This document shows positions 33,982 through 58,418 of a DNA stretch of 64,000 bases, piece by piece. Where the stretch lies: positions 74,510 to 138,509 of IMG/VR virus record IMGVR_UViG_3300021256_002629; one strand, given 5' to 3'. Every line of letters begins with the position of its first letter. The first letter of the stretch is position 1. Position numbers and translations under genes: made by a program. Source of the stretch: a virus (taxonomy: Duplodnaviria; Caudoviricetes). Below the pieces are notes generated by a model that searched no databases, was not told the origin of the DNA, and saw only the letters and a list, made by a program, of their open reading frames with translations.

Positions 33982-34094
33982 TAGACTTCTACATAAAGGT
34001 GTGGTTTATATAGCCACACTTTTTATTTATCATTTAGCCTAGATTTTTATTTTCTCCTCAAAATCTTATTTATGAAACCTTTAATGATTTTATT

Positions 34095-34703
34095 ATGACA
34101 GAAAAAGAAGCTGAAGATTTGTGTAGAATGATAAGAGTAGGAGTAGATTTAAGTAAGCCCAAGTACAATTATCATCCAAAAACAAAAGATGAATTAAAAT
34201 ATTTAGTTGAAAAACTAATTGAAGAAAGGGGAAATGAGGCAGATTTGAATGATGTTGACGTTTCCCAAATTAAAGATATGAGTTTGATATTTTATCAATC
34301 TAAATTTAACGGCGATATTTCTAATTGGGACGTTAGTAGAGTTGAGAATATGTGGTCGATGTTTAATAGTTCTCAATTTAATGGGGATATCTCAAAATGG
34401 AATGTTAGTAAAGTGAAGTGGATGAATGGAATGTTTTCTTGCTCTAAATTTAATGGTGATATTTCAAATTGGGATGTTAGTGGAGTGTGGAGGATGAGTG
34501 GGATGTTCTACAAGTCTCAATTTAATAGTGATATTTCAAAGTGGGATGTTAGTGGAGTGAAGGATATGGAAGTGATGTTTTACGGTTCTAAATTTAATGG
34601 GGATATTTCAAATTGGGATGTTAGTGGAGTTGAGAATATGGGTGGAATGTTTTGGGAATCTAAATTTAACGGCGATATCTCTAAATGGACTAAGAAACCA
34701 TAA
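34095..34703 (+). CDS. DUF285/BspA-like 24-aa repeat protein (6 repeats)
   Basis: MTEKEAEDLC leader, PKTK.EL...GNEADLND.DVS cap, (SxFNGDISxWxVSxVxxMxxMFxx)n. Confidence 0.9.
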   Translation: MTEKEAEDLCRMIRVGVDLSKPKYNYHPKTKDELKYLVEKLIEERGNEADLNDVDVSQIKDMSLIFYQSKFNGDISNWDVSRVENMWSMFNSSQFNGDISKWNVSKVKWMNGMFSCSKFNGDISNWDVSGVWRMSGMFYKSQFNSDISKWDVSGVKDMEVMFYGSKFNGDISNWDVSGVENMGGMFWESKFNGDISKWTKKP

Positions 34704-34780
34704 TAAAAAGAAACCCGGATTAATCTGGGTTTTTATTTTCTCCTCAAAATCTTATTTATGAAACCTTTAATAATTTTATC

Positions 34781-35320
34781 ATGACGGAAAAAGAAGCTGA
34801 AGAGTTGTGTAAGATGGTAAGAATAGGTGTAGATTTAAGCAAACCTAAATATAATTATCAACCAAAGACAAAAGAGGAATTAGAAGATCTTATTAAGAAA
34901 TTAATTAAGGAAAGGGGAAATGAGGCAGATTTGAATGATATAGACGTTTCCCAAATTACGGATATGGGTTTGGTATTTTATGATTCTCAATTTAATGGCG
35001 ATATTTCTAATTGGAATGTTAGTGGGGTTGAGGATATGTGGTCGATGTTTAATAGTTCTCAATTTAATGGGGATATCTCAAATTGGGACGTTAGTAGAGT
35101 TAAGGATATGAGTGGAATGTTTTCTTGCTCTAAATTTAATGGCGATATTTCTAAATGGAATGTTAGTGGAGTGAAGAATATGGGGCGTATGTTCTACAAG
35201 TCTCAATTTAATGGGGACATTTCAAATTGGGATGTTAGGAAGGTGAGGGATATGAGCTGGATGTTTGAAAGTTCTCAATTTAAAGGCGATATTTCTAAAT
35301 GGACCAAGAAACCGGAATAA
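34781..35320 (+). CDS. DUF285/BspA-like repeat protein (5 repeats)
   Basis: Same architecture. Confidence 0.9.
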   Translation: MTEKEAEELCKMVRIGVDLSKPKYNYQPKTKEELEDLIKKLIKERGNEADLNDIDVSQITDMGLVFYDSQFNGDISNWNVSGVEDMWSMFNSSQFNGDISNWDVSRVKDMSGMFSCSKFNGDISKWNVSGVKNMGRMFYKSQFNGDISNWDVRKVRDMSWMFESSQFKGDISKWTKKPE

Positions 35321-35398
35321 AAGAAAGACCTGGATAAATTTATCTGGGTTTTATTTTCTCCTCAAAATCTTATTATTGAAACCTTTAATAATTTTATT

Positions 35399-36373
35399 AT
35401 GACGGAAAAAGAAGCCGAAGATTTGTGCAGAATGGTAAGAGTAGGAGTAGATTTAAGTAAACCCAATTATAAATATTATCCAGAAACAAGAGATGAATTA
35501 AAAGATCTAATCAACAAACTACTTGAAGAAAGAGGAATTGAGGCGGATTTGAATGATGTTGATGTTTCCAAAATTACGGATATGAGAGAAGTGTTTGCTT
35601 GGTCTCTGTTCAATGGAAATATTTCAAAATGGGATGTGAGTAAAGTGAGGAATATGTGGGGAATGTTTAGAAATTCTCAATTCAATGGAGATATATCTAA
35701 TTGGGATGTTAGTGGGGTTGAGGAGATGAGAGGAATGTTTTGGTATTCTCAATTTAATGGTGATATTTCAAATTGGGATGTTAGTGGGGTTGAGAGTATG
35801 AGTTGTATGTTTGCTTCTTCTGAATTTAATGGCGATATCTCAAATTGGAATGTTAGTAATGTGAATAGTATGTGGGAGATGTTCCGTAATTCTCAATTTA
35901 ATGGAGATATTTCAAAATGGAATGTTAGTAGGGTTGAGAATATGTGTGAAATGTTTTCTCGTTCTCAATTTAATGGCGATATCTCAAAATGGAATGTTAG
36001 TAAAGTGAAGTGGATGAATGGAATGTTTTCTCGTTCTCAATTTAATGGGGATATCTCAAATTGGAATGTTAGTAGTGTGGAGGATATGGAAGGAATGTTT
36101 GAATGTTCTGAATTTAATGGAGATATCTCAAAATGGAATGTTAAGGAGGTTGTAAATATGAAAAAAATGTTCGCTAATAATAAATCTGCTAATATTCCTG
36201 ACTGGTGTCCTAATGAAAGTTTACTACGCAGAGTACTATCATTCTTAATGTGTAGGTATCCCGATCCTGAAAAAAGTTTTTGGAGGCCACTATATACAGT
36301 ATTACTGTTCTTAATAGGTATAGTAATGCTAGCGTTATTAGAATATTATGATCCAATGGGTAAGTATAAATAA
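35399..36373 (+). CDS. DUF285/BspA-like repeat protein (8 repeats) with C-terminal TM helix
   Basis: Repeats then LYTVLLFLIGIVMLALL. Confidence 0.9.
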   Translation: MTEKEAEDLCRMVRVGVDLSKPNYKYYPETRDELKDLINKLLEERGIEADLNDVDVSKITDMREVFAWSLFNGNISKWDVSKVRNMWGMFRNSQFNGDISNWDVSGVEEMRGMFWYSQFNGDISNWDVSGVESMSCMFASSEFNGDISNWNVSNVNSMWEMFRNSQFNGDISKWNVSRVENMCEMFSRSQFNGDISKWNVSKVKWMNGMFSRSQFNGDISNWNVSSVEDMEGMFECSEFNGDISKWNVKEVVNMKKMFANNKSANIPDWCPNESLLRRVLSFLMCRYPDPEKSFWRPLYTVLLFLIGIVMLALLEYYDPMGKYK

Positions 36374-36397: not shown

Positions 36398-37651
36398 ATG
36401 ACGGAAAAAGAAGCTGAAGATTTATGCAAAATGATAAGAATAGGAGTAGATCTAAGCAAACCTAAATATAATTATCAACCAAAGACAAAAGAGGAATTAG
36501 AAGATCTTATTAAGAAATTAATTGAAGAAAGGGGAAATGAGGCAGATTTGAATGATGTTGATGTTTCCCGAATTACGGACATGAGAGAATTGTTTGCTAA
36601 TTTTCCTCAATTCAACGGAGATATATCTAATTGGGATGTTAGTGGAGTTGAGGATATGAGTTTTATGTTTAATGGTTCTGATTTTAATGGTGATATTTCA
36701 AAATGGGACGTGAGTAAAGTTGAGGATATGCATTTTATGTTTGCTTATTCTGAATTCAATGGAGATATTTCTAGTTGGAATGTTAGTAGAGTGTGGAATA
36801 TGAGTGGAATGTTTAAAGATTCTAAATTTAATGAGGATATTTCAAATTGGAGTGTTAGTAAGGTGGAGAATATGAGTTATATGTTTTATGAGTCTCAATT
36901 TAATGAAAATATTTCAAATTGGGATGTTAGTGGGGTGGAGAATATGAGTTATATGTTTTCCTATTCTCAATTCAATGGAAATATTTCAAATTGGGATGTT
37001 AGGAGAGTTGGAGAGATGAGTAATATGTTTTCCTGTTCTCAATTCAATGGAGATATTTCTAATTGGGACGTTAGTGGAGTTGAGGATATGAGCTGGATGT
37101 TTGCCTCTTCTCAATTTAATAGGGATATTTCAAAATGGAATGTTAGTAAAGTATGGGATATGAGGGGAATGTTTAATAGTTCTCAATTTAACAGCGATAT
37201 CTCTGAATGGAATGTTAGTAATGTTGAGGATATGGGTTGGATGTTTCAGTATTCTAAATTTAATGGAGATATCTCAAATTGGGACGTTAGTAGAGTTAAG
37301 GATATGAGTGGGATGTTTGCTGGCTCTCAATTTAATGGAGATATATCTAATTGGGACGTTAGTAGAGTTGAGAATATGAGTAAAACGTTTTATCTATCAT
37401 TTAAATTTGATGGAGATATTTCTAAATGGGATGTTAGTGGTGTTAAGTGTATGGATGAAATGTTTGATAACTATAAACCTACTGATGGTATCCCAAAATG
37501 GTATCTTAGTAAAAAAGATAATAAAGAATGTGTAGTAAAGAGTGTAACAACCACTCCTGCTAACGACTCCTATAATAGTATTCTTAGTGCTATTATAAAG
37601 CAGCTACTATTTATTGTAATAATGTTAGCAATATTTTATTTCATTAAATAA
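36398..37651 (+). CDS. DUF285/BspA-like repeat protein (12 repeats) with C-terminal TM helix
   Basis: Repeats then LLFIVIMLAIFYFIK. Confidence 0.9.
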   Translation: MTEKEAEDLCKMIRIGVDLSKPKYNYQPKTKEELEDLIKKLIEERGNEADLNDVDVSRITDMRELFANFPQFNGDISNWDVSGVEDMSFMFNGSDFNGDISKWDVSKVEDMHFMFAYSEFNGDISSWNVSRVWNMSGMFKDSKFNEDISNWSVSKVENMSYMFYESQFNENISNWDVSGVENMSYMFSYSQFNGNISNWDVRRVGEMSNMFSCSQFNGDISNWDVSGVEDMSWMFASSQFNRDISKWNVSKVWDMRGMFNSSQFNSDISEWNVSNVEDMGWMFQYSKFNGDISNWDVSRVKDMSGMFAGSQFNGDISNWDVSRVENMSKTFYLSFKFDGDISKWDVSGVKCMDEMFDNYKPTDGIPKWYLSKKDNKECVVKSVTTTPANDSYNSILSAIIKQLLFIVIMLAIFYFIK

Positions 37652-37693
37652 TATGACGTTTTTAAATTATTAACTTAAAATTATCTATTAATT

Positions 37694-37972: not shown

Positions 37973-38079
37973 ATACAATTAAGCCTAGAAGATCAAATTC
38001 TAGGTTTATTTTTCTTTTTCCACCTAATTAACTTATATATGAAAGAAAAATATATTTAAACCCTATTTTAGATAAATTT

Positions 38080-38526: not shown

Positions 38527-39423
38527 ATGACAGAAAAAGAAGCTGAAGATTTGTGTAGAATGATAAGAATAGGAGTAGATTTAAGTCCTAAATATCAACC
38601 AAGAACGAAAGAAAAGTTAAAAGATCTCATCGAAGATTTAATTGAAGAAAGGGGAAATGAGGCAGACTTGAATGATGTTGATGTTTCTCAAATTACGAAT
38701 ATGGAGTTGTTATTTGCCCATTCTAAATTCAATGGCGATATCTCTAAGTGGGATATTAGGAAGGTTGAAAGTATGGAAGGAATGTTTTATGATTCCGAAT
38801 TTAATGGAGATATTTCGGGTTGGAATGTTAGTAATGTAAAGAATATGAATAGTACGTTCTATGAATCTCGATTTAATGGTGATATCTCTAAGTGGAATGT
38901 TAGTGAAGTGAGGGACATGAAGGGAATGTTTGATTGCTCTCAATTCAATGGAGATATTTCTAATTGGGATGTTAGTAAGGTAGAAGATATGAGTTGGATA
39001 TTTTCCGGTTCTCAATTCAATGGAAATATCTCAAAATGGAATGTTAGGGGAGTATGGAATATGTTTAGAATGTTTGCTTCTTCTAAATTTAATGGAAATA
39101 TATCTAATTGGGATGTTAGTAATGTTGAGTGTATGAGTGAGATGTTTTACTATTCTCAATTCAATAGTGATATCTCTAATTGGAATGTTAGTGGGGTGAA
39201 GGATATGAGCGGGATGTTTTATGGATCTCAATTTAACGGTGATATTTCAAAATGGGATGTTAGTAATGTTGAGAATATGAGTCGCATGTTTGAAAGCTCT
39301 CAATTCAATGGAGATATTTCTGATTGGGATGTTAGTGGGGTTGAGAGTATGGATGATATGTTTTGGAATTCTCAATTCAAAGGAGATATTTCAAAATGGG
39401 CTAAGAAACCAGATTTATTTTAA
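38527..39423 (+). CDS. DUF285/BspA-like repeat protein (10 repeats)
   Basis: Same architecture. Confidence 0.9.
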   Translation: MTEKEAEDLCRMIRIGVDLSPKYQPRTKEKLKDLIEDLIEERGNEADLNDVDVSQITNMELLFAHSKFNGDISKWDIRKVESMEGMFYDSEFNGDISGWNVSNVKNMNSTFYESRFNGDISKWNVSEVRDMKGMFDCSQFNGDISNWDVSKVEDMSWIFSGSQFNGNISKWNVRGVWNMFRMFASSKFNGNISNWDVSNVECMSEMFYYSQFNSDISNWNVSGVKDMSGMFYGSQFNGDISKWDVSNVENMSRMFESSQFNGDISDWDVSGVESMDDMFWNSQFKGDISKWAKKPDLF

Positions 39424-39510: not shown

Positions 39511-40998
39511 ATGACAAAGTACGATTATCAACCAAAAACAAAAGAAGAATTAAAAAATCTTATTAAGAAGTTGATTAAAGAGAGGGGAAACGAGGCGGAT
39601 TTGAATGATGTTGATGTCTCTCTGATCACGGATATGAGCAGTCTATTTGCTAAATCCAAATTTAATGGAAATATATCTAATTGGGATGTTAGCAGGGTTG
39701 TGGATATGAGTAGAATGTTCACTAATTCTCAATTCAATAATGATATCTCAAAATGGAACGTTAGCAGGGTTGTGAATATGGGTTTTATGTTTGCTAACTC
39801 TCAATTTAACGGAGATATATCTAATTGGGATGTGAGTAAGGTTGAAAGTATGAGTTTTATGTTTAATGGTTCTGAATTTAATGGAGATATTTCAAATTGG
39901 AATGTTAGTGGGGTTGAGAGTATGAGCTGGATGTTCGCTAATTCTCAATTCAACAGTGACATCTCAAAATGGAATGTTAGTAAGGTGAAAGATATGTATG
40001 GGATGTTTATGGGTTCTAAATTCAACAGCGACATCTCAAAATGGAATGTTGGTAAGGTGAAGGATATGAGTTATATGTTTCAGGAATCTCAATTTAATGG
40101 GGATATTTCGAATTGGAATGTTAGTAAGGTTAATAATATGGAAGGAATGTTCGAAAAATCTCAATTTAATGGAGTTATTTCTAACTGGGATGTTAGTAGA
40201 GTAAGGAATATGCGTGATATGTTTTCTTACACTCAATTCAATAATGATATCTCAAAATGGGATGTTGGTAGTGTTGAGAATATGATGGGTATGTTTTCTC
40301 ATTCCCAATTCAATAGCGATATCTCTAATTGGGATGTTAGTGAAGTTAAGGATATGGGCTGGATGTTTGATGGTTCTGAATTTAATGGGGATATTTCGAA
40401 ATGGGATGTTAGTGATGTGAGGTATACGCGTGATATGTTTTGTGATTCTAAATTCAATGGAGATATTTCAAATTGGAATGTTAGTGGAGTGAAGGATATG
40501 CAATGTATGTTTGAACGTTCTCAATTCAATAACGATATTTCAAAATGGGATGTTAGTGGGGTGAAGGACATGTTGGGAATGTTTTGTGATTCTAAATTCA
40601 ATGGAGATATTTCAAAATGGAATGTTAGTAAAGTGAAGTTGATGAGTGGGATGTTCGAAAATTCTATATTTAACGGAGACATTTCTAAATGGGATGTTAG
40701 TAATGTTGAGAATATGCAAAACATGTTTATGGGTTCTCAATTCAATAATGATATCTCAAACTGGAATGTTAATAAGGTAGAGGATATGAGGTGGATGTTT
40801 CAAAACTCCCAATTCAATAACGATATCTCTAATTGGGACGTTAGCAAGGTGGAAAATATGACTAGTATGTTTCAAAATTCTCAATTCAATGGGAATATCT
40901 CAGAGTGGAACGTTAATAGTGTGAAGTATATGAGCTGTATGTTTAAAAATTCCAAATTTAATGGAGATATTTCAAAATGGGCTAAGAAACCGAAATAA
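39511..40998 (+). CDS. DUF285/BspA-like repeat protein (~19 repeats, no MTEKEA leader)
   Basis: Starts directly at YQPKT cap. Confidence 0.9.
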   Translation: MTKYDYQPKTKEELKNLIKKLIKERGNEADLNDVDVSLITDMSSLFAKSKFNGNISNWDVSRVVDMSRMFTNSQFNNDISKWNVSRVVNMGFMFANSQFNGDISNWDVSKVESMSFMFNGSEFNGDISNWNVSGVESMSWMFANSQFNSDISKWNVSKVKDMYGMFMGSKFNSDISKWNVGKVKDMSYMFQESQFNGDISNWNVSKVNNMEGMFEKSQFNGVISNWDVSRVRNMRDMFSYTQFNNDISKWDVGSVENMMGMFSHSQFNSDISNWDVSEVKDMGWMFDGSEFNGDISKWDVSDVRYTRDMFCDSKFNGDISNWNVSGVKDMQCMFERSQFNNDISKWDVSGVKDMLGMFCDSKFNGDISKWNVSKVKLMSGMFENSIFNGDISKWDVSNVENMQNMFMGSQFNNDISNWNVNKVEDMRWMFQNSQFNNDISNWDVSKVENMTSMFQNSQFNGNISEWNVNSVKYMSCMFKNSKFNGDISKWAKKPK

Positions 40999-41101
40999 AA
41001 AAAAATAAAAAGAAGCCTGGATTAATTAATTTTAGTCTAGGTTTTTATTTTCTCCTCAAAATCTTATTACTGAATGTTATAAACCTTTAAATTAAATTCA
41101 T

Positions 41102-42298
41102 ATGAAGTACAATTATCAACCAAAAACGAAAAAGGAATTAAAAAGTCTTATCAAAAAATTAATTAAAAAAAGAGGAAATAAGGCAGATTTGAATGATGTT
41201 GATGTTTCTCAGATCACAGATATGAGTGGGTTGTTTACTAATTTTCAGTTTAATGGAAACATCTCAAATTGGAATGTTAGTAATGTTGAGGATATGAGTA
41301 ATATGTTTGAAGAGTCTAGATTTAATGGAGATATTTCAAAATGGGATGTTAGTAAGGTAAAGGATATGGGTGGAATGTTTAACTATTCTGAATTTAATGG
41401 AGATATTTCAAATTGGAATGTTATGAGGGTGGAGAATATGTCGATGATGTTCTATAATTCTGAATTTAATGGTGACATCTCAAATTGGAATGTGAGTAAG
41501 GTGGAAGATATGGGAGGAATGTTTTACGGTTCTCGATTTGACGGGGATATTTCTAACTGGGATGTTAGGAATGTGAAGAATATGTATGAGATGTTTATGG
41601 CATCTCGATTTAACGGAGATATTTCGAAATGGAACGTTAGTAATGTTGAGGATATGGGAGGAATGTTTGATAATTCTGAATTTAGTGGAGATATTTCAAA
41701 TTGGGATGTTAGTAGAGTTGAGAATATGTGGAGGATGTTTAATTGGTCTAAATTTAATGGAGATATCTCTAATTGGAATGTTAGTAAAGTTGAGGAGATG
41801 AATGAGATGTTTGCTTATTCTAAATTTAATGGAGATATTTCTAAGTGGAACGTTAGTAAGGTGGAGAACATGTGGGAAATGTTTGCTGGTTCTAAATTTA
41901 ACAAAGATATTTCAAAGTGGAATGTTAGTAATGTAAAGAATATGGGTGGGATGTTTCGAGAATCTAAATTCAACAAAGATATCTCAAAATGGGATGTTAG
42001 TAATGTTGAGAATATGGATGAGATGTTTATGACATCTCAATTCAATGGAAATATCTCTAATTGGAATGTTAGTAGAGTTGAAGATATGGAGGATATGTTT
42101 TGTGAGTCTAAATTTAACGGGGATATTTCAAAATGGGATGTTAGTAGGGTGAAGAATATGAGTTGTATGTTTCAGAGTTCTAAATTTAATGGAGACATTT
42201 CAAATTGGAATGTAAGTAAGGTTGAGGATATGGAGGATATGTTTGAAGATTCTCAATTTAATGGGGATATCTCTAGATGGACTAAGAAACCAGAATAA
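41102..42298 (+). CDS. DUF285/BspA-like repeat protein (~15 repeats, no MTEKEA leader)
   Basis: Starts MKYNYQPKT. Confidence 0.9.
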   Translation: MKYNYQPKTKKELKSLIKKLIKKRGNKADLNDVDVSQITDMSGLFTNFQFNGNISNWNVSNVEDMSNMFEESRFNGDISKWDVSKVKDMGGMFNYSEFNGDISNWNVMRVENMSMMFYNSEFNGDISNWNVSKVEDMGGMFYGSRFDGDISNWDVRNVKNMYEMFMASRFNGDISKWNVSNVEDMGGMFDNSEFSGDISNWDVSRVENMWRMFNWSKFNGDISNWNVSKVEEMNEMFAYSKFNGDISKWNVSKVENMWEMFAGSKFNKDISKWNVSNVKNMGGMFRESKFNKDISKWDVSNVENMDEMFMTSQFNGNISNWNVSRVEDMEDMFCESKFNGDISKWDVSRVKNMSCMFQSSKFNGDISNWNVSKVEDMEDMFEDSQFNGDISRWTKKPE

Positions 42299-42395
42299 AA
42301 AAAATAAAAAGAAGCCTGAATTAATTAATTTTAGTCCAGGTTTTATTTTCTTCTCAAAATCTTATTATTGAATATAAACTTTAAATTAAATTTAT

Positions 42396-43041
42396 ATGAA
42401 GTACAATTATCAACCAAAAGCGAAAAAGGAATTAAAGGATATTATTAAAAAACAGAACAAGTATGGTTATTTCTCTTATAGTTGCCGTTGCCGATAACGG
42501 AATCATCGGCAAGGAAAACGGGTTGCCATGGCATATTGGCGCCGACCTGAAGCGCTTTAAGGCCATTACAACGGGCCACACCATTCTGATGGGTAAGAAT
42601 ACCTATCTTTCTATAGGACGCCCGTTGCCTAACCGCCGCAATGTGGTGCTGAGCAGAAGCCTGACCGCTGCCGATGTGCCCGGCTGTGAGCTGATTGCCA
42701 GTTTGGACGAACTCGATAAACTGGGGTTGGAACCCGACGAAGAACTGTTCGTTATAGGCGGTGCCCGTGTGTATGAGCAGTTGATGCCCAAGGCCGACAA
42801 ACTGTATCTGACCAGGGTCCGTACACAGGCCGATGGGGACGTGAAATTCCCTGAAGTGGACTGGGACGAGTGGCAGCTTTGTAGCGAGACACACGGATTT
42901 GCAGACGAAAAAAACGATTTCGACTACTGCTTCCAAAACTATGAACGGAAGAAATGATAATGTCAAAAATGCCACTGTATGTGTTGGGAATCTAAATTTA
43001 ATGGAGACATTTCAAAATGGGCTAAGAAATCGACAGAATAA
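42396..43041 (+). pseudogene. DUF285 cassette whose interior is replaced by a foreign DHFR gene
   Basis: 42396-42452 encodes MKYNYQPKAKKELKDIIKK; ~42985-43041 encodes WESKFNGDISKWAKKSTE-stop. Confidence 0.85.
42463..42957 (+). CDS. folA: Dihydrofolate reductase, bacterial type, GC-rich
   Basis: LIVAVADNGIIG..NGLPWH...DLKRFK..T.G..ILMGKNTY.SIGRPLPNRRNVVLS, VIGGA.VY, GDVKFP; GC-ending codons unlike the rest of the window. Confidence 0.95.
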   Translation: MVISLIVAVADNGIIGKENGLPWHIGADLKRFKAITTGHTILMGKNTYLSIGRPLPNRRNVVLSRSLTAADVPGCELIASLDELDKLGLEPDEELFVIGGARVYEQLMPKADKLYLTRVRTQADGDVKFPEVDWDEWQLCSETHGFADEKNDFDYCFQNYERKK

Positions 43042-43123
43042 GATAAACCTAGATTAATTAATTTTAATCTGGGTTTTATTTTCTCCTCAAACTCTTATTT
43101 ATGAAACCTTTAATAATTTTATT

Positions 43124-44662: not shown

Positions 44663-44744
44663 TAAAAAGAAACCTGGATTAATTTTATCTGGGTTTTATT
44701 TTCTCCTCGAAATCTTATTATTGAAAACTTTTAATAATTTTATT

Positions 44745-46499: not shown

Positions 46500-46583
46500 T
46501 AAAAAAGAAAGACCTGGATAAATTTATCTGGGTTTTTATTTTCTCCTCAAAATCTTATTTATGAAACCTTTAATAATTTTATT

Positions 46584-47408: not shown

Positions 47409-47494
47409 AAAGAAAGACCTAGATTAATTTTAGTCTGGGTTTTATTTTCTCCTCAAGATCTTATTATTGAATATAAATCTTAAATTAAATTTAT

Positions 47495-48786: not shown

Positions 48787-48869
48787 TCATTAACAAAACC
48801 TGGATAAATTTATCTAGGTTTTTATTTTCTCCTCAAAATCTTATTCATGAAACCTTTAATAATTTTATT

Positions 48870-49688
48870 ATGACAGAAAAAGAAGTCGAAGATTTGTGTA
48901 GAATGATAAGGGTAGGAGTAGATTTAAGCAAAAAATATCAACCAAGAACAAAAGAAAAGTTAGAAGATCTAATCAAAGAACTAGTTAAAAAAAGGGGAAA
49001 TGAAGCAAATTTGAATGATATTGATGTTTCCCAAATTGAAGATATGAGTTATTTGTTTTTTGATTCTAAATTTAATGGAAATATATCTAAATGGAATGTT
49101 AGTAATGTGAAGAATATGACAGGAATGTTCGATAATTCCCAATTCAATGGGGATATTTCTAATTGGGACGTTAGTGGAGTTGAGGATATGTGGGGGATGT
49201 TTAATGACTCTGAATTTAATGGAGATATCTCAAATTGGAATGTTAGTAGTGTGAAGAATATGGGTATGATGTTTGATAATTCCCAATTCAATGGTGATAT
49301 TTCAAAATGGGATGTTAGTAGTGTAAAAGATATGAAGTGGATGTTTAAAGCTTCTAAATTCAACGGGGATATTTCTAAATGGAACGTTAGTGAGGTGAGG
49401 AGTATGTTGGGGATGTTTGACAGTTCTCAATTTAGTGGAGATATTTCTAATTGGAATGTTAGTAATGTTGAGAATATGAGTTGGATGTTTGCTCATTCCA
49501 TATTTAGTGGAGATATTTCTAATTGGAATGTTAGTAATGTTGAGAATATGAGTTGGATGTTTACTTCTTCTGAATTTAATGGCGATATCTCAAATTGGAA
49601 TGTTAGTAATGTGAATAGTATGTGGGAGATGTTCTGTAATTCTGAATTTAAAGGCGATATCTCAAAATGGGCTAAGAAACCAAAATAA
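48870..49688 (+). CDS. DUF285/BspA-like repeat protein (9 repeats)
   Basis: Same architecture. Confidence 0.9.
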   Translation: MTEKEVEDLCRMIRVGVDLSKKYQPRTKEKLEDLIKELVKKRGNEANLNDIDVSQIEDMSYLFFDSKFNGNISKWNVSNVKNMTGMFDNSQFNGDISNWDVSGVEDMWGMFNDSEFNGDISNWNVSSVKNMGMMFDNSQFNGDISKWDVSSVKDMKWMFKASKFNGDISKWNVSEVRSMLGMFDSSQFSGDISNWNVSNVENMSWMFAHSIFSGDISNWNVSNVENMSWMFTSSEFNGDISNWNVSNVNSMWEMFCNSEFKGDISKWAKKPK

Positions 49689-49769
49689 AAAAAAAGACCT
49701 GGATAAAATTTATCTGGGTTTTTATTTTCTCCTCAAAATCTTATTCATGAAACCTTTAATAATTTTATT

Positions 49770-50525
49770 ATGACAAAAAAAGAAGCCGAAGATTTGTGTA
49801 GAATGATAAGGATAGGAGTAGATCTAAGCAAGCCTAAATACCAACCAAAAACAAAAAAGGAATTAAAAAATCTAGTCAAAGAACTGATTAAAGAAAGAGG
49901 AAATAAAGCAGATTTGAATGATATAGACGTTTCTCAAATTACGAGTATGAGCGAACTATTTTATAAATCTGAATTTAATGGGGATATCTCAAAATGGAAT
50001 GTTAGTAAAGTGAAGTGGATGAATGGAATGTTCTATAAGTCTCAATTCAATGGAGACATATCTAATTGGGATGTTAGTGGAGTTGAGGATATGGCAGTGA
50101 TGTTTTCTGGGTCTCAATTCAATGGGAATATCTCAAAATGGAATGTTGGTAGAGTGAAAAGTATGAGTTGGATGTTTGAAAGTTCTCTATTTAATGGGGA
50201 TATCTCAAAATGGGATGTTAGTGGGGTTGAGTGGATGCACAAGATGTTTGCTTATTCTAAATTTAATGGAGACATTTCAAATTGGAATGTTAGTAATGTG
50301 GAGGATATGAAAGGAATGTTTTTTTGTTCTAAATTTAATGGTGATATCTCTAGTTGGGATGTCAGTAAGGTTGAGAAGATGGATTGGATGTTTTATTGTT
50401 CTAAATTCAATGGGGATATCTCAAAATGGAATGTTAGTAATGTTGAGAGTATGGAAGATATGTTTTATTGTTCTAAATTCAATGGGGATATCTCAAAATG
50501 GACTAAGAAACCAGCCCCATTTTAA
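49770..50525 (+). CDS. DUF285/BspA-like repeat protein (8 repeats)
   Basis: Same architecture. Confidence 0.9.
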   Translation: MTKKEAEDLCRMIRIGVDLSKPKYQPKTKKELKNLVKELIKERGNKADLNDIDVSQITSMSELFYKSEFNGDISKWNVSKVKWMNGMFYKSQFNGDISNWDVSGVEDMAVMFSGSQFNGNISKWNVGRVKSMSWMFESSLFNGDISKWDVSGVEWMHKMFAYSKFNGDISNWNVSNVEDMKGMFFCSKFNGDISSWDVSKVEKMDWMFYCSKFNGDISKWNVSNVESMEDMFYCSKFNGDISKWTKKPAPF

Positions 50526-50610
50526 AAGAATAAACCTGGATTAATTAATCTTAATCTGGGTCTATTTTCTCCTCAAAATCCTTATTATTGAAACCTTTAA
50601 TAATTTTATT

Positions 50611-51504
50611 ATGACGGAAAAAGAAGCGGAAGACCTATGTAGGATGGTAAGAATAGGAGTAGATTTAAGTAAGCCTAAGTTCAGACCAAAAACAAAAGAG
50701 GAGTTAAAAGATCTCATTGAGAAACTAATTGAAGAAAGGGGAAATGAAGCAGATTTGAATGATGTTGATGTTTCCCGAATTACAAGCATGAGCGAACTGT
50801 TTGCCTACACTAACTTTAATGGGGATATCTCAAAATGGAATGTTAGTAGAGTGAAGTGGATGAAAGATATGTTTCGTAGTTCTAAATTCAACGGTAATAT
50901 TTCTAATTGGAATGTTAGTAAGGTTGAAGATATGGAAGGAATGTTTGCCTACACTAACTTTAATGGAGATATTTCTAAATGGAATGTTAGTAGGGTTAAG
51001 AATATGAATCATTTGTTTACTGGTTCTCAATTCAATGGCAATATTTCAAATTGGAATGTTAGTGGAGTTGAGGATATGAGAGGATTGTTTTATTATTCTC
51101 AATTTAATGGAGATATCTCAGGTTGGGATGTTGGGGGAGTGAAGAATATGATCGGGATGTTCCGAAATTCTCAATTTAATGGCGATATCTCAAGTTGGAA
51201 TGTTAGTAAAGTTAAGTGGATGGAAGTTATGTTTGAAGGTTCTAAATTTAACGGTAATATCTCAAATTGGAATGTTAGTGGAGTGAAGAATATGAGAAGT
51301 ATGTTTGAAAACTCCCAATTTAATAATGATATTTCAAATTGGGATGTGAGTAAGGTTGAGAATATGTGGTGTATGTTTAGAAATTCCCAATTTAATGGAG
51401 ACGTCTCTAAGTGGAATGTTAGTAAGGTGGGGAATATGTGGGGGATGTTTCGGGGTTCTAAATTTAATGGGGATATTTCAAAATGGACTAATAAACCAAC
51501 ATAA
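50611..51504 (+). CDS. DUF285/BspA-like repeat protein (10 repeats)
   Basis: Same architecture. Confidence 0.9.
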   Translation: MTEKEAEDLCRMVRIGVDLSKPKFRPKTKEELKDLIEKLIEERGNEADLNDVDVSRITSMSELFAYTNFNGDISKWNVSRVKWMKDMFRSSKFNGNISNWNVSKVEDMEGMFAYTNFNGDISKWNVSRVKNMNHLFTGSQFNGNISNWNVSGVEDMRGLFYYSQFNGDISGWDVGGVKNMIGMFRNSQFNGDISSWNVSKVKWMEVMFEGSKFNGNISNWNVSGVKNMRSMFENSQFNNDISNWDVSKVENMWCMFRNSQFNGDVSKWNVSKVGNMWGMFRGSKFNGDISKWTNKPT

Positions 51505-53128: not shown

Positions 53129-53746
53129 ATGACGGAAAAAGAAGCAGAGGATTTATGTAGAATGGTGAGAATAGGGGTAGATTTAAGTAAGAATAAGTAT
53201 AATTATCATCCAAAAACAAGAGAGGAATTAAAAGATCTAATTGGAAAACTAATTAAAGAAAGGGGAAATGAGGCAGATTTGAATGATATAGACGTTTCCG
53301 GAATTACAGATATGACTCATATGTTTTATGGGTCTGAATTTAATGGAGATATTTCAGAATGGGACGTTAGAGGAGTAAAGAATATGCAAGGAATGTTTTA
53401 TGGGTCTGAATTTAATGGCGATATCTCTGGCTGGAATGTTAGGAAGGTTGAGGATATGGACGGAATGTTTGAGAGTTCTAAATTTAATGGTGATATTTCA
53501 GGATGGAATGTTAGTAATGTTGCGGATATGGGTTATATGTTCTACAAGTCTCAATTTAATGGAGATATTTCAGAATGGGGCGTTAGTAAGGTTGAGAATA
53601 TGGAATGGATGTTTTATGGATCTGAATTTAATGGTAATATTTCTAATTGGGACGTTAGTAATGTTAGGTATATGAGTGGGATGTTCAGTGATTCTAAATT
53701 TAATGGAGATATCTCAAAATGGGCTAAGAAACCAACAGATTATTAA
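53129..53746 (+). CDS. DUF285/BspA-like repeat protein (6 repeats)
   Basis: Same architecture. Confidence 0.9.
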   Translation: MTEKEAEDLCRMVRIGVDLSKNKYNYHPKTREELKDLIGKLIKERGNEADLNDIDVSGITDMTHMFYGSEFNGDISEWDVRGVKNMQGMFYGSEFNGDISGWNVRKVEDMDGMFESSKFNGDISGWNVSNVADMGYMFYKSQFNGDISEWGVSKVENMEWMFYGSEFNGNISNWDVSNVRYMSGMFSDSKFNGDISKWAKKPTDY

Positions 53747-53766: not shown

Positions 53767-54666
53767 ATGACAGAAAAAGAAGCGGAAGATTTGTGTAAAA
53801 TGGTACGAGTGGGAGTAGATTCAAGTAAGAAATATTATCCAAAAACAAAAGAAGAACTAATGGATCTTATTAAGGAACTAGTTAAAGAAAGAGGAAATGA
53901 AGCAAATTTGAATGATATTGATGTTTCCCAAATTAAAGATATGAGTAAATTATTTTATGAATCTAATTTTAATGGAAACATTTCAAAATGGGATGTTAGT
54001 GGAGTTGTGGATATGAGTTGGATGTTTCGGGGATCTGGATTTAATGGTGATATTTCAGAATGGGATGTTAGTGGGGTTGAGAGTATGAGCTGGATGTTTG
54101 CTTTTTCTCAGTTTAATGGTAATATTTCAGAATGGAACGTTAGTGGAGTTATGGATATGAGTTTGATGTTTTATTATTCTAAATTTAATGGTGACATTTC
54201 AAATTGGAATGTTAATGAGGTGAAAAGTATGTATGGGATGTTTGAAAGTTCTCAATTCAATGGAGATATCTCAAATTGGGATGTTAGTGGAGTAAGATTT
54301 ATGAGTAGTATGTTTTATAAATCTAAATTCAACGGTGATATCTCAAAATGGAACGTTAGCAAGGTGAAGAAGATGAATGAAATGTTTACTCATTCTGAAT
54401 TTAATGGAGATATCTCAAAATGGAATGTTAGTGGAGTTGAAAGTATGGAAGGAATGTTCAGTGATTCTAAATTTAACGGCGATATTTCTAATTGGGATGT
54501 TAGTGGGGTTGAGTTTATGGATTATATGTTTCTAGACTCTCAATTTAATGGGGACATTTCAAATTGGGATGTGAGTAAGGTTAAGAGTATGGATGATATG
54601 TTTGAAAATTCTCAATTTAGTGGGGATATCTCAAAATGGGCTAAGAAACCAAAAAGAAGAAGATAA
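53767..54666 (+). CDS. DUF285/BspA-like repeat protein (10 repeats)
   Basis: Same architecture; retains only the last ~20 nt of the intergenic unit. Confidence 0.9.
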   Translation: MTEKEAEDLCKMVRVGVDSSKKYYPKTKEELMDLIKELVKERGNEANLNDIDVSQIKDMSKLFYESNFNGNISKWDVSGVVDMSWMFRGSGFNGDISEWDVSGVESMSWMFAFSQFNGNISEWNVSGVMDMSLMFYYSKFNGDISNWNVNEVKSMYGMFESSQFNGDISNWDVSGVRFMSSMFYKSKFNGDISKWNVSKVKKMNEMFTHSEFNGDISKWNVSGVESMEGMFSDSKFNGDISNWDVSGVEFMDYMFLDSQFNGDISNWDVSKVKSMDDMFENSQFSGDISKWAKKPKRRR

Positions 54667-54746
54667 AAAAGAAAAACTTGGATAAAATTTATCTGGGTTT
54701 ATTTTCTCTTCAAAATCTTATTTATGAAACCTTTAATAATTTTACT

Positions 54747-55421
54747 ATGACAGAAAAAGAAGCAGAAGATTTGTGTAGAATGGTAAGGGTAGGAGTAGAT
54801 TTAAGCAAGAAATATCAACCAAAAACAAAAGAGGAATTAATGGATCTAATTGAGGAGCTAATTAAAGAAAGAGGAAATAAGGCAAATTTGAATGATATTG
54901 ATGTTTCCCAAATTACGGACATGAGTGGATTATTCTGGTATTCTCAATTTAATGGGAATATTTCAAGATGGAATGTTAGTAAGGTGGAGAATATGTATCT
55001 GATGTTTAAGGGTTCTCTATTTAATGGGGATATTTCTAATTGGGATGTTAGTGGAGTGAAGAGTATGAGGTGTATGTTCCTAGACTCTCAATTTAATGGG
55101 AATATTTCTAAATGGGATGTTAGTGGAGTGAAGGATATGAATGGGATGTTTCATGGATCTCAATTCAATGGAGATATCTCAAAATGGGATGTTGGTAGTG
55201 TTGAGAATATGGAATATATGTTTACTCGCTCTCAGTTTAATGGCGATATTTCAAAGTGGAATGTTAGTAAGGTGAGGAATATGAACTGGATGTTTGAAGG
55301 TTCTAAATTTAATGGAGATATCTCAGAGTGGAACGTTAGTAATGTGAGGGATAATATGTATGATATGTTTAAGAACTCTAAATTCAACGGCGATATTTCA
55401 AAATGGGCTAAGAAACCATAA
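54747..55421 (+). CDS. DUF285/BspA-like repeat protein (7 repeats)
   Basis: True start MTEKEA at 54747, not 54678. Confidence 0.9.
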   Translation: MTEKEAEDLCRMVRVGVDLSKKYQPKTKEELMDLIEELIKERGNKANLNDIDVSQITDMSGLFWYSQFNGNISRWNVSKVENMYLMFKGSLFNGDISNWDVSGVKSMRCMFLDSQFNGNISKWDVSGVKDMNGMFHGSQFNGDISKWDVGSVENMEYMFTRSQFNGDISKWNVSKVRNMNWMFEGSKFNGDISEWNVSNVRDNMYDMFKNSKFNGDISKWAKKP

Positions 55422-55514
55422 TAAAAAGAAAGACCTGGATTAATAATTTTAGCCTGGGTTTTTATTTTCTCCTCAAAATCTTATTTATGAAGAAACCTTT
55501 TAATTAATTTTATT

Positions 55515-56411
55515 ATGATTGTTACAAGAAAGAAGCTCAATGATTTGTGTAGAATGGTAAAAGTGGGAGTAGATTCAAATAAGAAATATCATCCAGAAAC
55601 AAGAGAGGGATTAGAATATCTTATTAAGGAACTAATTAAGGAAAGAGGAAATAAGGCAGATTTGAATGATATAGACGTTTCCCAAATTATAGATATGAGA
55701 GGATTGTTTTATAAATCCCAGTTTAATGGAGATATTTCTGATTGGGATGTTAGTAGTGTGAGGGGTATGTTTGGAATGTTCTGTGAGTCTCAATTTAATG
55801 GAGATATCTCGAAATGGAATGTTAGTAAGGTTGATAATATGGGTACTATGTTTGCTGATTCTCAATTCAATGGGGATATTTCAAATTGGAATGTTAGTAG
55901 AGTGGAAAATATGGAAGAAATGTTTGCTGGCTCTCAATTTAATGGAGATATTTCAAGATGGGATGTTAGTAAGGTAGAGGATATGTTTGGGATGTTTGCC
56001 AGTTCTAAGTTTAATGGAAATATTTCAGGTTGGAATGTTGGAAAGGTGAAAGATATGAAGTGCATGTTTGACCGCTCTCAATTCAATGGAGATATTTCTA
56101 GTTGGAACGTTAGTAAGGTTGAGAGGATGAGTGGAATGTTTTTTAAATCTCAATTTAATGGGGATATTTCAAAGTGGAATGTTAGTAAAGTAAAGGACAT
56201 GAGTGAAATGTTTACCGGCTCTCAATTTAATGGGGATATTTCAAAGTGGGATGTTAGTGGAGTTGAAGATATGAGCGGAATGTTTGCTCAATCTCAATTC
56301 AATGGTGATATTTCTAGCTGGGATGTTAGGAAGGTGAAAGATATGAATTGGATGTTCCGAAATTCTCAGTTCAATGGAGATATCTCAAAATGGGCTAAGA
56401 AACCAGAATAA
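55515..56411 (+). CDS. DUF285/BspA-like repeat protein (10 repeats), variant leader
   Basis: MIVTRKKLNDLCRMVKVGVD leader. Confidence 0.9.
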   Translation: MIVTRKKLNDLCRMVKVGVDSNKKYHPETREGLEYLIKELIKERGNKADLNDIDVSQIIDMRGLFYKSQFNGDISDWDVSSVRGMFGMFCESQFNGDISKWNVSKVDNMGTMFADSQFNGDISNWNVSRVENMEEMFAGSQFNGDISRWDVSKVEDMFGMFASSKFNGNISGWNVGKVKDMKCMFDRSQFNGDISSWNVSKVERMSGMFFKSQFNGDISKWNVSKVKDMSEMFTGSQFNGDISKWDVSGVEDMSGMFAQSQFNGDISSWDVRKVKDMNWMFRNSQFNGDISKWAKKPE

Positions 56412-56504
56412 AAAAAAGAAAGACCTAGATTAATAATTTTAGTCTGGGTTTTTATTTTCTCCTCAAAATCTTATTTATGAAGAAACCTTTTAATTAATTT
56501 TATT

Positions 56505-58418
56505 ATGATTATTATGATTGTTACAGAAAAAGAATTTTATGATTTGTGTAAAAAACTAGGAGTAAAAGAGTCAAACGAGTACAATTATCACCCAAAAACA
56601 AATAAGGAGTTAAAGGATCTCATTAAGAAATTAATTAAAGAGAGGGGAAATGAGGCGGATTTGAATGATGTTGATGTTTCCCAAATTGAAGACATGAGTG
56701 AGATATTTAAAGGCTCTCAATTCAATGGCGACATTTCAAAGTGGGATGTTAGTGGGGTGAAAAAGATGTTTTATATGTTTGCCCATTCTAAATTCAATGG
56801 CGACATTTCAAAGTGGGATGTTAGTGGAGTGAAGGATATGTGTGGAATGTTTTGTGGATCTCAATTTAACGGGGATATTTCTAATTGGGATGTTAGTAAT
56901 GTTGAGGATATGTGTCATATGTTTCGAAATTCTCAATTTAACGGAGATATCTCTAATTGGGATGTTAGTGGGGTTGAGTGTATGGTTTGGATGTTTATGG
57001 GATCTCAATTTAATGGGGATATTTCGAATTGGAATGTTGAGGATACAGATATAATGTTTGACGGTTCTCAACTTGATAAAAGCAATATTTCAGATTGGAG
57101 AAATGTTAGCAAATTCGAAGATATATTACGTAAAAGGCCAGAAATAAAAGATCCCAATAATAAGTATAAATATCAACCAAAAACAAATAAGGAGTTAAAA
57201 AATCTCATCGAAAAACTAATTAAAGAGAGGGGAAATAAGGCAGATTTGAATGATGTTGATGTTTCCCAAATTACAGATATGAGTCAGTTGTTTGCTTGGT
57301 CTGAATTTAATGGAGATATTTCGAATTGGGATGTTAGTGGAGTGAAGGATATGAGTGAGATATTTTGGAATTCTCAATTTAATGGAGATATTTCAAAATG
57401 GGATGTTAGTGGAGTGGAGAATATGTATAGAATGTTTTATAGTTCTCAATTTAACGGAGATATTTCAAAATGGAATGTAAGTAAGGTTGAGAGTATGAGT
57501 CATATGTTTTCTGGCTCTCAATTTAATGGCGACATTTCAAAGTGGGATGTTAGTGGGGTGAATGATATGAGTGGGATGTTTGAATGTTCTCCATTTAATG
57601 GAGATATCTCTAGCTGGGATGTTAGTGAGGTTGAGAAGATGGAAGGAATGTTTTGGTGTTCTAAATTTAACGGCGATATCTCTAAATGGAATGTTAGTAA
57701 GGTGAAAGATATGGCTTGGATGTTTTATAAATCTAAATTCAGCGGGGATATTTCTAAGTGGAATGTTGGTAGTGTGGAGGAGATGTTTGGAATGTTTGAA
57801 GAATCTCAATTTAATGGAGATATTTCGAAATGGGATGTTAGTAATGTTGAAGATATGGGTGGAATGTTTCGTAAATCTCAATTTAATAGTGATATCTCAA
57901 ATTGGAATGTTAGTAATGTTAAGAATATGCAGGATATGTTTAAAGAGTCTGAATTTAATGGAAATATCTCAAAATGGGATGTTAGTGGGGTTGTGGATAT
58001 GGAAGGGATATTTTGTAAGTCCCAATTTAATAAAGACATTTCTAATTGGAACGTTAGTAATGTGAAAGATATGAGTTTTATGTTTACCAAATCTCAATTT
58101 AATGGGAATATCTCTAATTGGAACGTTAGTAAGGTTGAGAGGATGAAATATACGTTTGCTAACTCTCTATTTAACGGTGACATCTCTAAATGGGATGTTA
58201 GTAAAGTTGAGGAGATGGAAGGAATGTTTACTGAATCTCAATTTAATGGTGATATCTCAAATTGGAATGTTAGTAAAGTGAAGCATATGGAGGGAATGTT
58301 TTATAATTCTCAATTTAACGGCGATATCTCAAAATGGGACGTTAGGAAGGTGAAGGATATAAGTAAAATATTTGATGATATTAGTGAAAAATATGTCATC
58401 AAATTTGAAAAAAGTTGA
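56505..58418 (+). CDS. Double DUF285/BspA-like repeat protein (cap + 5 repeats, second cap + ~15 repeats)
   Basis: PKTNKELK...ADLNDVDVSQI cap occurs twice. Confidence 0.9.
   Translation: MIIMIVTEKEFYDLCKKLGVKESNEYNYHPKTNKELKDLIKKLIKERGNEADLNDVDVSQIEDMSEIFKGSQFNGDISKWDVSGVKKMFYMFAHSKFNGDISKWDVSGVKDMCGMFCGSQFNGDISNWDVSNVEDMCHMFRNSQFNGDISNWDVSGVECMVWMFMGSQFNGDISNWNVEDTDIMFDGSQLDKSNISDWRNVSKFEDILRKRPEIKDPNNKYKYQPKTNKELKNLIEKLIKERGNKADLNDVDVSQITDMSQLFAWSEFNGDISNWDVSGVKDMSEIFWNSQFNGDISKWDVSGVENMYRMFYSSQFNGDISKWNVSKVESMSHMFSGSQFNGDISKWDVSGVNDMSGMFECSPFNGDISSWDVSEVEKMEGMFWCSKFNGDISKWNVSKVKDMAWMFYKSKFSGDISKWNVGSVEEMFGMFEESQFNGDISKWDVSNVEDMGGMFRKSQFNSDISNWNVSNVKNMQDMFKESEFNGNISKWDVSGVVDMEGIFCKSQFNKDISNWNVSNVKDMSFMFTKSQFNGNISNWNVSKVERMKYTFANSLFNGDISKWDVSKVEEMEGMFTESQFNGDISNWNVSKVKHMEGMFYNSQFNGDISKWDVRKVKDISKIFDDISEKYVIKFEKS

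Follow-up and report, generated by a model that had tools for sequence, protein, structure and literature searches.

Tandem arrays of DUF285 leucine-rich repeat cassettes in a large phage genome, a possible repertoire of binding proteins

The 64,000-bp stretch analyzed here (the window) is the right-hand 64 kb of the linear, 138,509-bp IMG/VR record IMGVR_UViG_3300021256_002629 (record coordinates are given as G000, all others refer to the window). Between positions 34095 and 58418, its plus strand carries 19 intact genes for proteins of the DUF285 family (PF03382), as seen from the listing of open reading frames (ORFs) and a motif count. A second array of 19 paralogs with the same architecture is located ~50 kb upstream, outside the window (locus L001, G000 39897-59098). 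These genes form a functional, old and actively recombining multigene family of leucine-rich repeat (LRR) type that is organized in autonomous cassettes. With somewhat less than even confidence, we read this family as a set of varied binders that the infected cell produces. We regard as established to which family the proteins belong, how they fold, how the cassettes are built and conserved, that conversion tracts exist, and that relatives carry the arrays only in part.

The genes of the window array contain ~208 units in total (Table 1), which confirms the 19 intact paralogs with 3-22 units each and ~200 units altogether that had been described in an earlier note on this DNA. The 24-kb array of that note does contain its 19 genes; however, it is broken four times (37652-38526, 42299-43123, 48275-48869 and 51505-53128), includes a gene with only three units, and its last gene is a fusion. 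The unit is 24 amino acids long, and Tandem Repeats Finder detected the corresponding 72-bp period across the whole array. The proposed membership in the DUF285/BspA-like family was corroborated by Pfam, with E values of 9e-27 to 2e-288 (94-938 bits, gathering cut-off 25 bits) for the five paralogs tested; in the genome, there are 119 PF03382 matches above the cut-off. Together, both arrays comprise at least 38 genes and ~44 kb (~31% of the record), and all of the 38 frames, which amount to ~37 kb of coding DNA, are open.

For a closer description of the unit, 319 canonical 24-residue units from both arrays were aligned in register. F3, W10 and F22 are invariant, and the entropy of I7, S8, V12, V15 and M18 does not exceed 0.13 bits (0.38 bits for M21). 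Columns 19, 20, 23 and 24 have 3.4-3.8 bits with 17-19 residue types, and column 17 has 2.7 bits with 15 types. Columns 2, 9, 14 and 16 vary within small alphabets; apart from these, variation is limited to columns 16-24. These entropies bear out the nearly invariant scaffold and the variable positions (~17, 19, 20, 23 and 24) of the earlier note. Its view that these positions take almost any residue holds for the number of types (15-19) but not for their choice: given the base composition, the variable columns contain 4- to 25-fold less I, L, V and T than expected and a 2- to 4-fold excess of W, D, G and N (3.8-fold for W), which argues that they are not neutral. Columns 16, 17, 19, 20, 23 and 24 are interspersed among V15, M18, M21 and F22, which belong to the core, in a single stretch of nine residues per turn. 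As the variable columns are confined to this stretch, they probably stack as a single stripe along the solenoid.

In unit pairs compared by the Nei-Gojobori method, pN/pS is 0.15-0.23 for the scaffold columns, which are thus under purifying selection. For the five variable columns, pN/pS is 1.0-1.3 with pS of 0.5-0.58, that is, near saturation (estimates from chosen near-identical unit pairs are biased). Hypervariability is thus upheld by the entropies, whereas the positive selection that was expected to accompany it is not supported by such values at saturated synonymous sites. Furthermore, the units are equidistant, with ~73% nucleotide identity within a gene as well as between genes at the same or at different indices. 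Since synonymous differences are near saturation and the units are equidistant, the DUF285 family in this phage must be old.

The fold was predicted with AlphaFold2 for the 298-residue paralog at 38527-39423, using an alignment of 20 paralogs. The model (pLDDT 93.5, pTM 0.85) has two N-terminal helices and, after them, a regular solenoid in which a short bridge recurs every 24 residues, i.e., a confidently predicted LRR solenoid. VIA-align superimposed it on Leptospira LIC11098 (Z 16.6 over 250 residues) and on the FNIP LRR protein of CroV (7ZAL, Z 16.1). In a library of viral models, the best matches were DUF285 proteins of AaV (Kratosvirus quantuckense), environmental Megaviridae and jumbo phages (E down to 2e-24, TM up to 0.85). 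Foldseek retrieved only LRR proteins from the PDB, with weak scores (E above 1e-3), and a PDB sequence search with one paralog and a 21-sequence profile returned no solved structure.

The cassette anatomy was deduced from an alignment of the 100 nt before each start codon. Each cassette starts with a terminator hairpin and a 52-nt upstream element; the encoded protein begins with an acidic leader helix and an N-cap, continues with the repeats and ends with a KWAKKP tail. The 52-nt element precedes almost every cassette, and a position weight matrix (PWM) scan found 34 copies in the genome, all of them on the plus strand and at cassette heads. Between cassettes it has a mean identity of 92%, compared to 40-48% of synonymous sites that differ in the adjoining codons; this non-coding element is therefore under strong purifying selection and must be functional. 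Its likely function is that of a phage promoter. The core of the element resembles CTTATATATG, which is 16-fold enriched 20-40 nt upstream of ~12 other small ORFs of the phage. This promoter-like motif, (T)CTTAT(A/T)TATG(A), is found 20-40 nt 5' of ~12 small ORFans (e.g., at window position 15795 and at G000 8971, 11707 and 67318), and the enrichment of its 7-mers in intergenic sequence before genes reaches 16-fold. The non-cassette genes that follow it are ORFans without a PHROG function; tail-fibre genes are not preceded by it. The motif may represent a promoter class for the phage's own RNA polymerase, and sigma-70-like promoters are not enriched (110 vs 103 +/- 10).

Terminator-like sites are threefold more frequent than in shuffled sequences (20 vs 6.4 +/- 2.3), most of them being plus-strand hairpins between cassettes. 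The acidic leader helix (MTEKEAEDLCRM...) has only ~20 residues and is missing from five window genes; the helical N-cap is shared with DUF285 proteins generally, and the KWAKKP tail, a short basic C-cap, is present in 28 of the 38 members. Each gene is therefore best described as an autonomous cassette with its own terminator and promoter-like element. One cassette has been gutted and carries a foreign gene (Table 1). It retains the hairpin, the upstream element, the first ~22 N-cap codons and the last ~17 codons (ending with KWAKKSTE), and in between there is a complete DHFR gene (42463-42957) with up to 56% GC in a genome of 32% GC. As these parts of the cassette have been kept, the foreign DHFR is probably driven by the cassette promoter.

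The arrays bear traces of recombination. Eight unit pairs are at least 95% identical and ten at least 93% identical, compared to 0 and 0.25 in column-shuffled nulls. Exact tracts of 50-95 nt are shared by non-adjacent paralogs at non-matching repeat positions, also across the ~50-80 kb between the arrays, and a further shared tract of 114 nt is 97% identical. Such near-identical patches in distant paralogs, set against the 73% background, indicate short-patch gene conversion of about one repeat per patch, among paralogs and between the arrays. Only ~10 recent tracts can be recognized among 55,611 unit pairs, and the remainder diverged anciently. Conversion is thus rare and evolutionary, and nothing points to a programmed process, because there is no reverse transcriptase in 138 kb and every gene is complete. 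The reverse transcriptase family PF00078 had no match in the 138.5 kb, in which the controls did match; as the record is ~40% complete, such a gene may be encoded elsewhere in the genome. A target of a diversity-generating retroelement (DGR) was rejected for the same lack of a PF00078 match in 138.5 kb, and an assembly of the type known for lamprey variable lymphocyte receptors (VLRs) was rejected because none of the 38 genes is incomplete, each having its own start, caps and stop (no search was aimed at a deaminase).

Tandem LRR modules and unit-sized conversion tracts between cassettes would also be expected if programmed hypervariation (DGR-like mutagenesis or VLR-like copy choice) made new binders within the phage population. 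We consider this very improbable, not only because of the missing reverse transcriptase and the few recent tracts, but also because no pair of template and variable repeats was seen and because an independent assembly of a related array is unchanged. This array is present on a 106-kb IMG/VR contig (G003) and on a 312-kb ENA contig (L160), and the two versions (L010 and L160) are 100% identical. The VLR likeness drawn earlier therefore stands for the LRR fold and for evolutionary gene conversion, while no programmed diversifier was found in the 138 kb. The agreement of the two assemblies bears on a technical explanation as well. In a region so rich in repeats, an assembler might have collapsed or expanded a smaller number of genes; however, the units average only 73% identity, the longest exact repeat in the arrays (95 nt) is shorter than usual reads and the largest assembler k-mers, and all frames are intact. 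It is hardly credible that the array is an artefact of this kind.

The 38 intact frames, the low pN/pS of the scaffold, the 92% identity of the upstream element and the enrichment of hairpins show that the genes are functional rather than junk. This has to be weighed against the notion of selfish or near-neutral repeat DNA, which would spread by duplication and recombination like the 'mobilome' of PARCEL repeats and would bring little benefit to the phage, its variable positions being unconstrained. Indeed, PARCELs are associated with mobile elements (PMC2996958), the arrays are patchily distributed among relatives (see below), a foreign gene has been captured within a cassette, and pN/pS at the variable columns is ~1. 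On the other hand, all frames have stayed open despite saturated synonymous divergence, scaffold and regulatory element are conserved, aliphatic residues are strongly excluded from the variable columns, and packaging size puts pressure on phage genomes. Accounting for the arrays as selfish DNA appears quite improbable.

What do these proteins do? With a variable stripe on a rigid scaffold, many residues of the stripe being aromatic or polar, they have the look of binding proteins. Several features let us lean towards an intracellular site. None of the 38 paralogs has a hydrophobic N-terminus, in line with the lack of signal peptides stated in the earlier note, whereas cellular DUF285 homologues from Paludibacteraceae, Akkermansia, Nitrosopumilaceae and others (L080, L086, L094, L101, L106, L107 and L110) do possess signal peptides. 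Two to three members are tail-anchored (those at 35399-36373 and 36398-37651 and, more weakly, at 47495-48274). Exposed cysteine is enriched, the promoter-like motif is shared with small ORFans, and the DUF285 solenoids of AaV and Megaviridae occur, according to the viral model library, in proteins annotated as E3 ligase or protein kinase. Expression of the genes, binding by their products, an intracellular site of action and the kind of target are all inferred.

In the mechanism that we propose, the family would have grown by tandem duplication, changes in repeat number, fusion, and gene conversion in patches of about one repeat, which would pass among paralogs and between both arrays; cassettes also seem to have been exchanged with other phages, and no programmed diversifier would be involved. 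Each solenoid would present its stripe, rich in W, Y, D, N, G and S, on one side of the rigid scaffold, and each protein would hold a different molecule of the host or of a competitor, for host takeover or counter-defence. Host defence proteins could conceivably be among these targets. The repeat-protein families of large eukaryotic viruses would be a parallel.

Several points weigh against this reading. The record is only ~40% complete. The combination of a fixed scaffold and a variable stripe, including the composition of the stripe, is a general trait of DUF285 proteins and by itself no pointer to a special function here: the same make-up, rich in D, N, S, G and Y and poor in aliphatic residues, is found at equivalent positions in other viral loci (1,505 units) and in cellular loci (869 units), and only the extra W and C are special to this phage (two to three times as frequent as in other DUF285 proteins). 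The LRR solenoid is predicted by the structural model, whereas the 'one continuous face' is deduced from sequence adjacency and solenoid geometry. A pN/pS of ~1 at saturation neither shows nor excludes positive selection at the variable columns. Furthermore, cellular DUF285 proteins are surface proteins, and the virion of phage Goslar may carry LRR proteins on a shared N-terminal anchor (bioRxiv 10.64898/2026.04.21.720040); two DUF285 proteins of AaV are packaged in virions (PMC7507832). The gene directly before the window array matches phrog_20787 ('virion structural protein') with its C-terminus, as does a gene of the tail-fibre cluster (L003:9809-11590), and the upstream array starts 6 kb past the tail-fibre genes.

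The points about surface proteins (PMC2996958), Goslar, AaV packaging and the shared phrog_20787 motif speak at the same time for virion-displayed adhesins, in which leader and N-cap would dock varied LRR heads on tail, baseplate or capsid and these would equip the virion with many binding specificities, for host surface glycans or for gut and rumen particles. Virion proteins lack signal peptides, too. The leader is short for such a docking module, however, and is absent from several intact paralogs; Pfam found no known anchor domain in the five scanned paralogs; C-terminal membrane anchors would be unusual in a virion fibre; each gene is preceded by a promoter-like element of its own, a type that is found in front of small ORFans but not of tail-fibre genes; and at least 38 different appendages would need a very permissive docking site. 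We regard virion display as a serious alternative, although rather unlikely. The intracellular binder library of the earlier note is partly supported: the missing export signals and the tail anchors fit it, and the family-wide stripe weakens it.

The leader could also be a capsid-targeting tag, so that a mix of solenoids is packaged, ejected with the DNA and acts at once on host proteins. Most paralogs do have this short conserved N-terminus, the arrays of another, 410-kb phage are headed by a different conserved leader, and AaV transcripts and particles contain DUF285 from 5 minutes. No prohead-protease site and no similarity to known targeting sequences were found (judged by eye only), head protease and capsid genes were not identified in the known part of the genome, and the tail-anchored members fit such a role badly. 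We regard injected cargo as a serious but unlikely alternative.

The distribution of the cassettes was followed in related genomes. The closest relative, a 184-kb contig (G001), encodes an RNA polymerase beta subunit 82% identical to that of the phage and has no DUF285 gene in its 184 kb. At the site of the window array, it has the actin-like gene, a 203-aa gene, a 61-aa ORF and nrdD within ~1.1 kb, while 26 kb separate the same neighbours in our phage. Other contigs of its source metagenome carry DUF285 genes (L021 and L035), which leaves a loss from the whole phage unproven. The nrdD gene of this contig (G001:C1:116469-121107; L007 and L008) consists of four matching pieces split by gaps and stop codons, which suggests introns, inteins or homing-endonuclease insertions; the window nrdD (58778-60967) is uninterrupted.

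G003, in contrast, has the same upstream element and leader on at least ten tandem cassettes. In the compared 20-kb stretch only one other gene matches the record (35% identity), and there is neither synteny nor a one-to-one orthology of cassettes. In a tree of the 5' modules, the G003 cassettes are wholly intermixed with those of both arrays (nine changes for nine rows, as with shuffled labels), and a few local clades show tandem duplication. As the cassettes intermix and the genomes have otherwise almost no genes in common in this stretch, the family appears to be a pool common to different jumbo phages. The comparison of array content with relatives that had been suggested earlier thus gave two answers, none at the site in G001 and the same, non-orthologous type of cassette in G003; the array appears to be lineage-specific in position and patchy in distribution. 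More widely, the DUF285 genes match 109 GenBank phage records with 30-41% identity, almost all of them jumbo phages, and more than 590 IMG/VR stretches. Tandem arrays of 9-19 genes are present in several other huge viral contigs (e.g., L017 with 18 genes and L059 with 19). In the 410-kb phage, short DUF285 genes that share the leader MKKLNQFI.EKFRLSKDNL form several tandem arrays. The latter arrays (L098 and L100) are located on the rumen contig ONIZ01000001.1 (410,106 bp), which is labelled 'uncultured Firmicutes bacterium RUG343' and is probably a huge phage binned as a bacterium.

A bolder version of our proposal would be that large phages of gut and rumen bacteria maintain a shared, horizontally exchanged pool of autonomous LRR-binder cassettes in which module conversion creates new specificities, i.e., an evolvable, antibody-like repertoire for counter-defence or host range, acting inside the cell or injected. 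This seems unlikely to us; if true, no bacterial virus would have been known before to possess such a system.

The carrier is a large tailed phage and not a eukaryotic giant virus, because the genes flanking the array match phage families: a DnaB-like helicase, pieces of the beta subunit of a multisubunit RNA polymerase, an NAD-dependent ligase, an actin-like (ParM/Alp7A) protein, and anaerobic ribonucleotide reductase with its activase. Tail-fibre proteins, GroEL and an Abi-alpha-like protein are encoded elsewhere in the record, and the RNA polymerase is split. CheckV estimated the completeness of the record at about 40%; the expected size of the whole genome is ~350 kb. Megablast of 25 kb of the window against GenBank phages gave zero matches. 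A Shine-Dalgarno-like tetramer precedes 5% of the genes (random rate, 14%), which fits a Bacteroidota-type host but is no proof of it. The nearest cellular DUF285 homologues come from metagenome-assembled genomes of horse faeces and rumen (Paludibacteraceae, Fibrobacter and others), and for this reason a herbivore gut is the likely habitat. The carrier is thus probably a jumbo phage, and its host probably a gut or rumen bacterium in which translation does not depend on Shine-Dalgarno sites.

Just 5' of the array, there is a gene of the ParM/Alp7A family (31831-32853; MreB-like_C, ALP_N), whose orthologue in G001 is 77% identical; its product may be a cytoskeletal or segregation element of jumbo phages. 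It is followed by two overlapping paralogous genes (32918-33981; 152 and 202 aa), in place of which G001 has the single 203-aa gene.

Table 1. Features of the window array. Hydropathy is the mean value of the C-terminal membrane helix; E values are from Pfam.
Position	Strand	Feature	Length (aa)	Units	Support
34043..34094	+	conserved 52-nt upstream element of the first cassette; promoter-like TCTTATTTATG 20 nt before ATG			PWM scan
34095..34703	+	DUF285 paralog	202	6	E 9e-52
34709..34734	+	terminator-like hairpin, then T-run, between cassettes; one of ~13 such array sites			
34781..35320	+	DUF285 paralog	179	5	
35325..35352	+	further hairpin			
35399..36373	+	DUF285 paralog with C-terminal membrane helix (tail-anchored)	324	8	hydropathy 2.28 from residue 298
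36398..37651	+	DUF285 paralog with C-terminal membrane helix (tail-anchored)	417	12	E 3e-155; hydropathy 2.59 from residue 395
38527..39423	+	DUF285 paralog; structure predicted	298	10	
39511..40998	+	DUF285 paralog without leader helix, begins at N-cap	495	19	E 2e-288
41011..41046	+	further hairpin			
41102..42298	+	DUF285 paralog without leader helix	398	15	
42306..43040	+	gutted cassette with foreign DHFR gene			DHFR_1, E 2e-57
43045..43076	+	further hairpin			
43124..44662	+	DUF285 paralog	512	19	
44669..44697	+	further hairpin			
44745..46499	+	DUF285 paralog; true start is the leader ATG, not TTG at 44601	584	22	
46508..46537	+	further hairpin			
46584..47408	+	DUF285 paralog	274	9	
47414..47443	+	further hairpin			
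47495..48274	+	short DUF285 paralog: N-cap, repeats, unrelated C-terminal part, weakly hydrophobic end	259	3	E 9e-27
48795..48822	+	further hairpin			
48870..49688	+	DUF285 paralog	272	9	
49693..49723	+	further hairpin			
49770..50525	+	DUF285 paralog	251	8	
50534..50561	+	further hairpin			
50611..51504	+	DUF285 paralog	297	10	
53129..53746	+	DUF285 paralog	205	6	
53767..54666	+	DUF285 paralog	299	10	
54747..55421	+	DUF285 paralog; start is the leader ATG	224	7	
55515..56411	+	DUF285 paralog with divergent leader	298	10	
56505..58418	+	in-frame fusion of two cassettes; second N-cap from ~residue 225	637	20	E 2e-171

Other small genes are found within the array. The ORFs at 37694-37972 and 38080-38433 have hydrophobic N-termini; the second one has a lipoprotein-like signal ending with ...TSAC and a promoter-like CTTATATATG 38 nt upstream. 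Three small paralogous ORFs (170, 121 and 109 aa) that all start with MRI[IVL]RQ and have no Pfam match are located on the minus strand at 51559-52970, followed by tRNA-Ala(TGC) and tRNA-Thr(TGT). Also on the minus strand, ORFs of 90-114 aa run antisense through the repeats (38710-39015, 43847-44119, 45537-46100 and 57537-57881) with a 24-aa periodicity of their own. It seems that they merely reflect the scarcity of stop codons in antisense frames; in the consensus, the antisense frame contains one stop per unit.

In phages, there is strong pressure towards small genomes. That ~44 kb are nevertheless spent on one protein family, with every copy and control element kept, implies a real pay-off from the arrays. 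If the solenoids bind molecules of the host or of rival phages, they would represent a new class of phage host-interaction factors and, at the same time, a natural library of small, stable, cysteine-tolerant LRR binders on a single scaffold. The cassette captures foreign genes as well (here, DHFR), and its presence in unrelated jumbo phages points to a gene-exchange unit specific to huge phages. Since other huge-phage contigs and a giant algal virus show the same design, solving the function once would account for many genes that have no explanation so far.

The closest published counterpart is AaV (Aureococcus anophagefferens virus), a giant virus of algae whose 38 DUF285 proteins are encoded in clusters in repeat-rich regions (Moniruzzaman 2014, as cited in PMC10720644, PMC5917014, PMC7507832). 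The genes are described as having a highly conserved upstream motif, as probably resulting from massive duplication, and as being expressed at a low, steady level from early infection on, with transcripts from 5 minutes (PMC10720644, PMC5917014, PMC7507832). AaV and the phage thus share the Pfam family, the predicted fold (TM up to 0.82), dozens of clustered paralogs and a conserved upstream motif. However, AaV is a eukaryotic nucleocytoplasmic virus with a host that has ~90 DUF285 loci, whereas the carrier here is a tailed phage. Its cassettes add the terminator, the leader helix and documented unit-sized gene conversion, and some AaV members are fused to effector domains, unlike those of the phage.

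The PARCEL repeat (Roske et al. 2010, PMC2996958) belongs to the same repeat family. Its hydrophobic positions are conserved and its hydrophilic ones variable, the repeats were proposed to be 'reservoirs of sequence variants', and they are linked to mobile DNA and vary in number, e.g., in the Mycoplasma surface lipoproteins LppQ and LppC (PMC2996958). Variable repeat number and association with mobile DNA recur in the phage, where the cassettes are patchy (absent from G001, present in G003). In contrast to the phage proteins, which lack a signal peptide, the characterized PARCEL members are exported membrane proteins or lipoproteins of cells; the unit has 25 residues there and 24 here, and a helical structure was guessed then, compared to the LRR solenoid of our model. 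Dyad symmetry of the repeat-coding DNA was not seen in a simple test, which differs from the MEME palindrome motifs used in PMC2996958: when the consensus 72-mer was set against its reverse complement at every offset, identity reached at best 39%, below the shuffled mean of 43%.

Among phages, ORF200 of Vibrio phage pir03, a single 19-kb PARCEL ORF, was reported as the first case (PMC7765460). The same domain is present in Aeromonas phage D3, Pseudomonas phage OBP, Klebsiella phage N1M2 and the Prevotella Lak megaphages. These jumbo phages, like pir03, usually have one or a few long genes, whereas the phage described here has at least 38 short, separately controlled tandem genes. Comparable tandem arrays were found only in uncultured contigs (L017, L059 and the 410-kb phage). 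For Goslar, paralogs whose shared N-terminal module bears heads of LRR or carbohydrate-binding type were proposed to form a 'fibre cloud' on the virion (bioRxiv 10.64898/2026.04.21.720040). This DUF7941 family (Chimalliviridae) resembles ours in combining a common N-terminal module with varied binding heads; the phage leader is, however, a single short helix, and the phage family is far larger. Neither DUF7941 nor another known anchor gave a Pfam match in the five paralogs, the presence of DUF7941 in that Pfam copy being unconfirmed.

The FNIP LRR proteins of CroV and mimivirus and the ankyrin proteins of poxviruses (the 'genomic accordion') are likewise multigene families that grow by duplication and are thought to bind intracellular host factors; they differ in repeat family, in their eukaryotic hosts and in the frequent fusions to F-box/E3-type adaptors, which the phage members lack. 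With lamprey and hagfish VLRs, the phage proteins have in common the LRR scaffold (Z 13.2-13.4) and diversity through gene-conversion-like copying of LRR modules. VLRs are, however, assembled somatically in a programmed process with cytidine deaminases from a single incomplete germline gene, whereas the phage genes are complete and conversion is rare and evolutionary. The earlier note's statement that no such phage system has been characterized is right as to function, and our literature search yielded no publication that describes an array of multiple DUF285 genes in a phage; nevertheless, AaV arrays have been published, and the 109 GenBank phage records and the IMG/VR arrays already exist. 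Virus-borne DUF285/LRR multigene families are thus known, and what is new here is the phage carrier, the unusual scale, the defined cassette and the documented exchange of modules.

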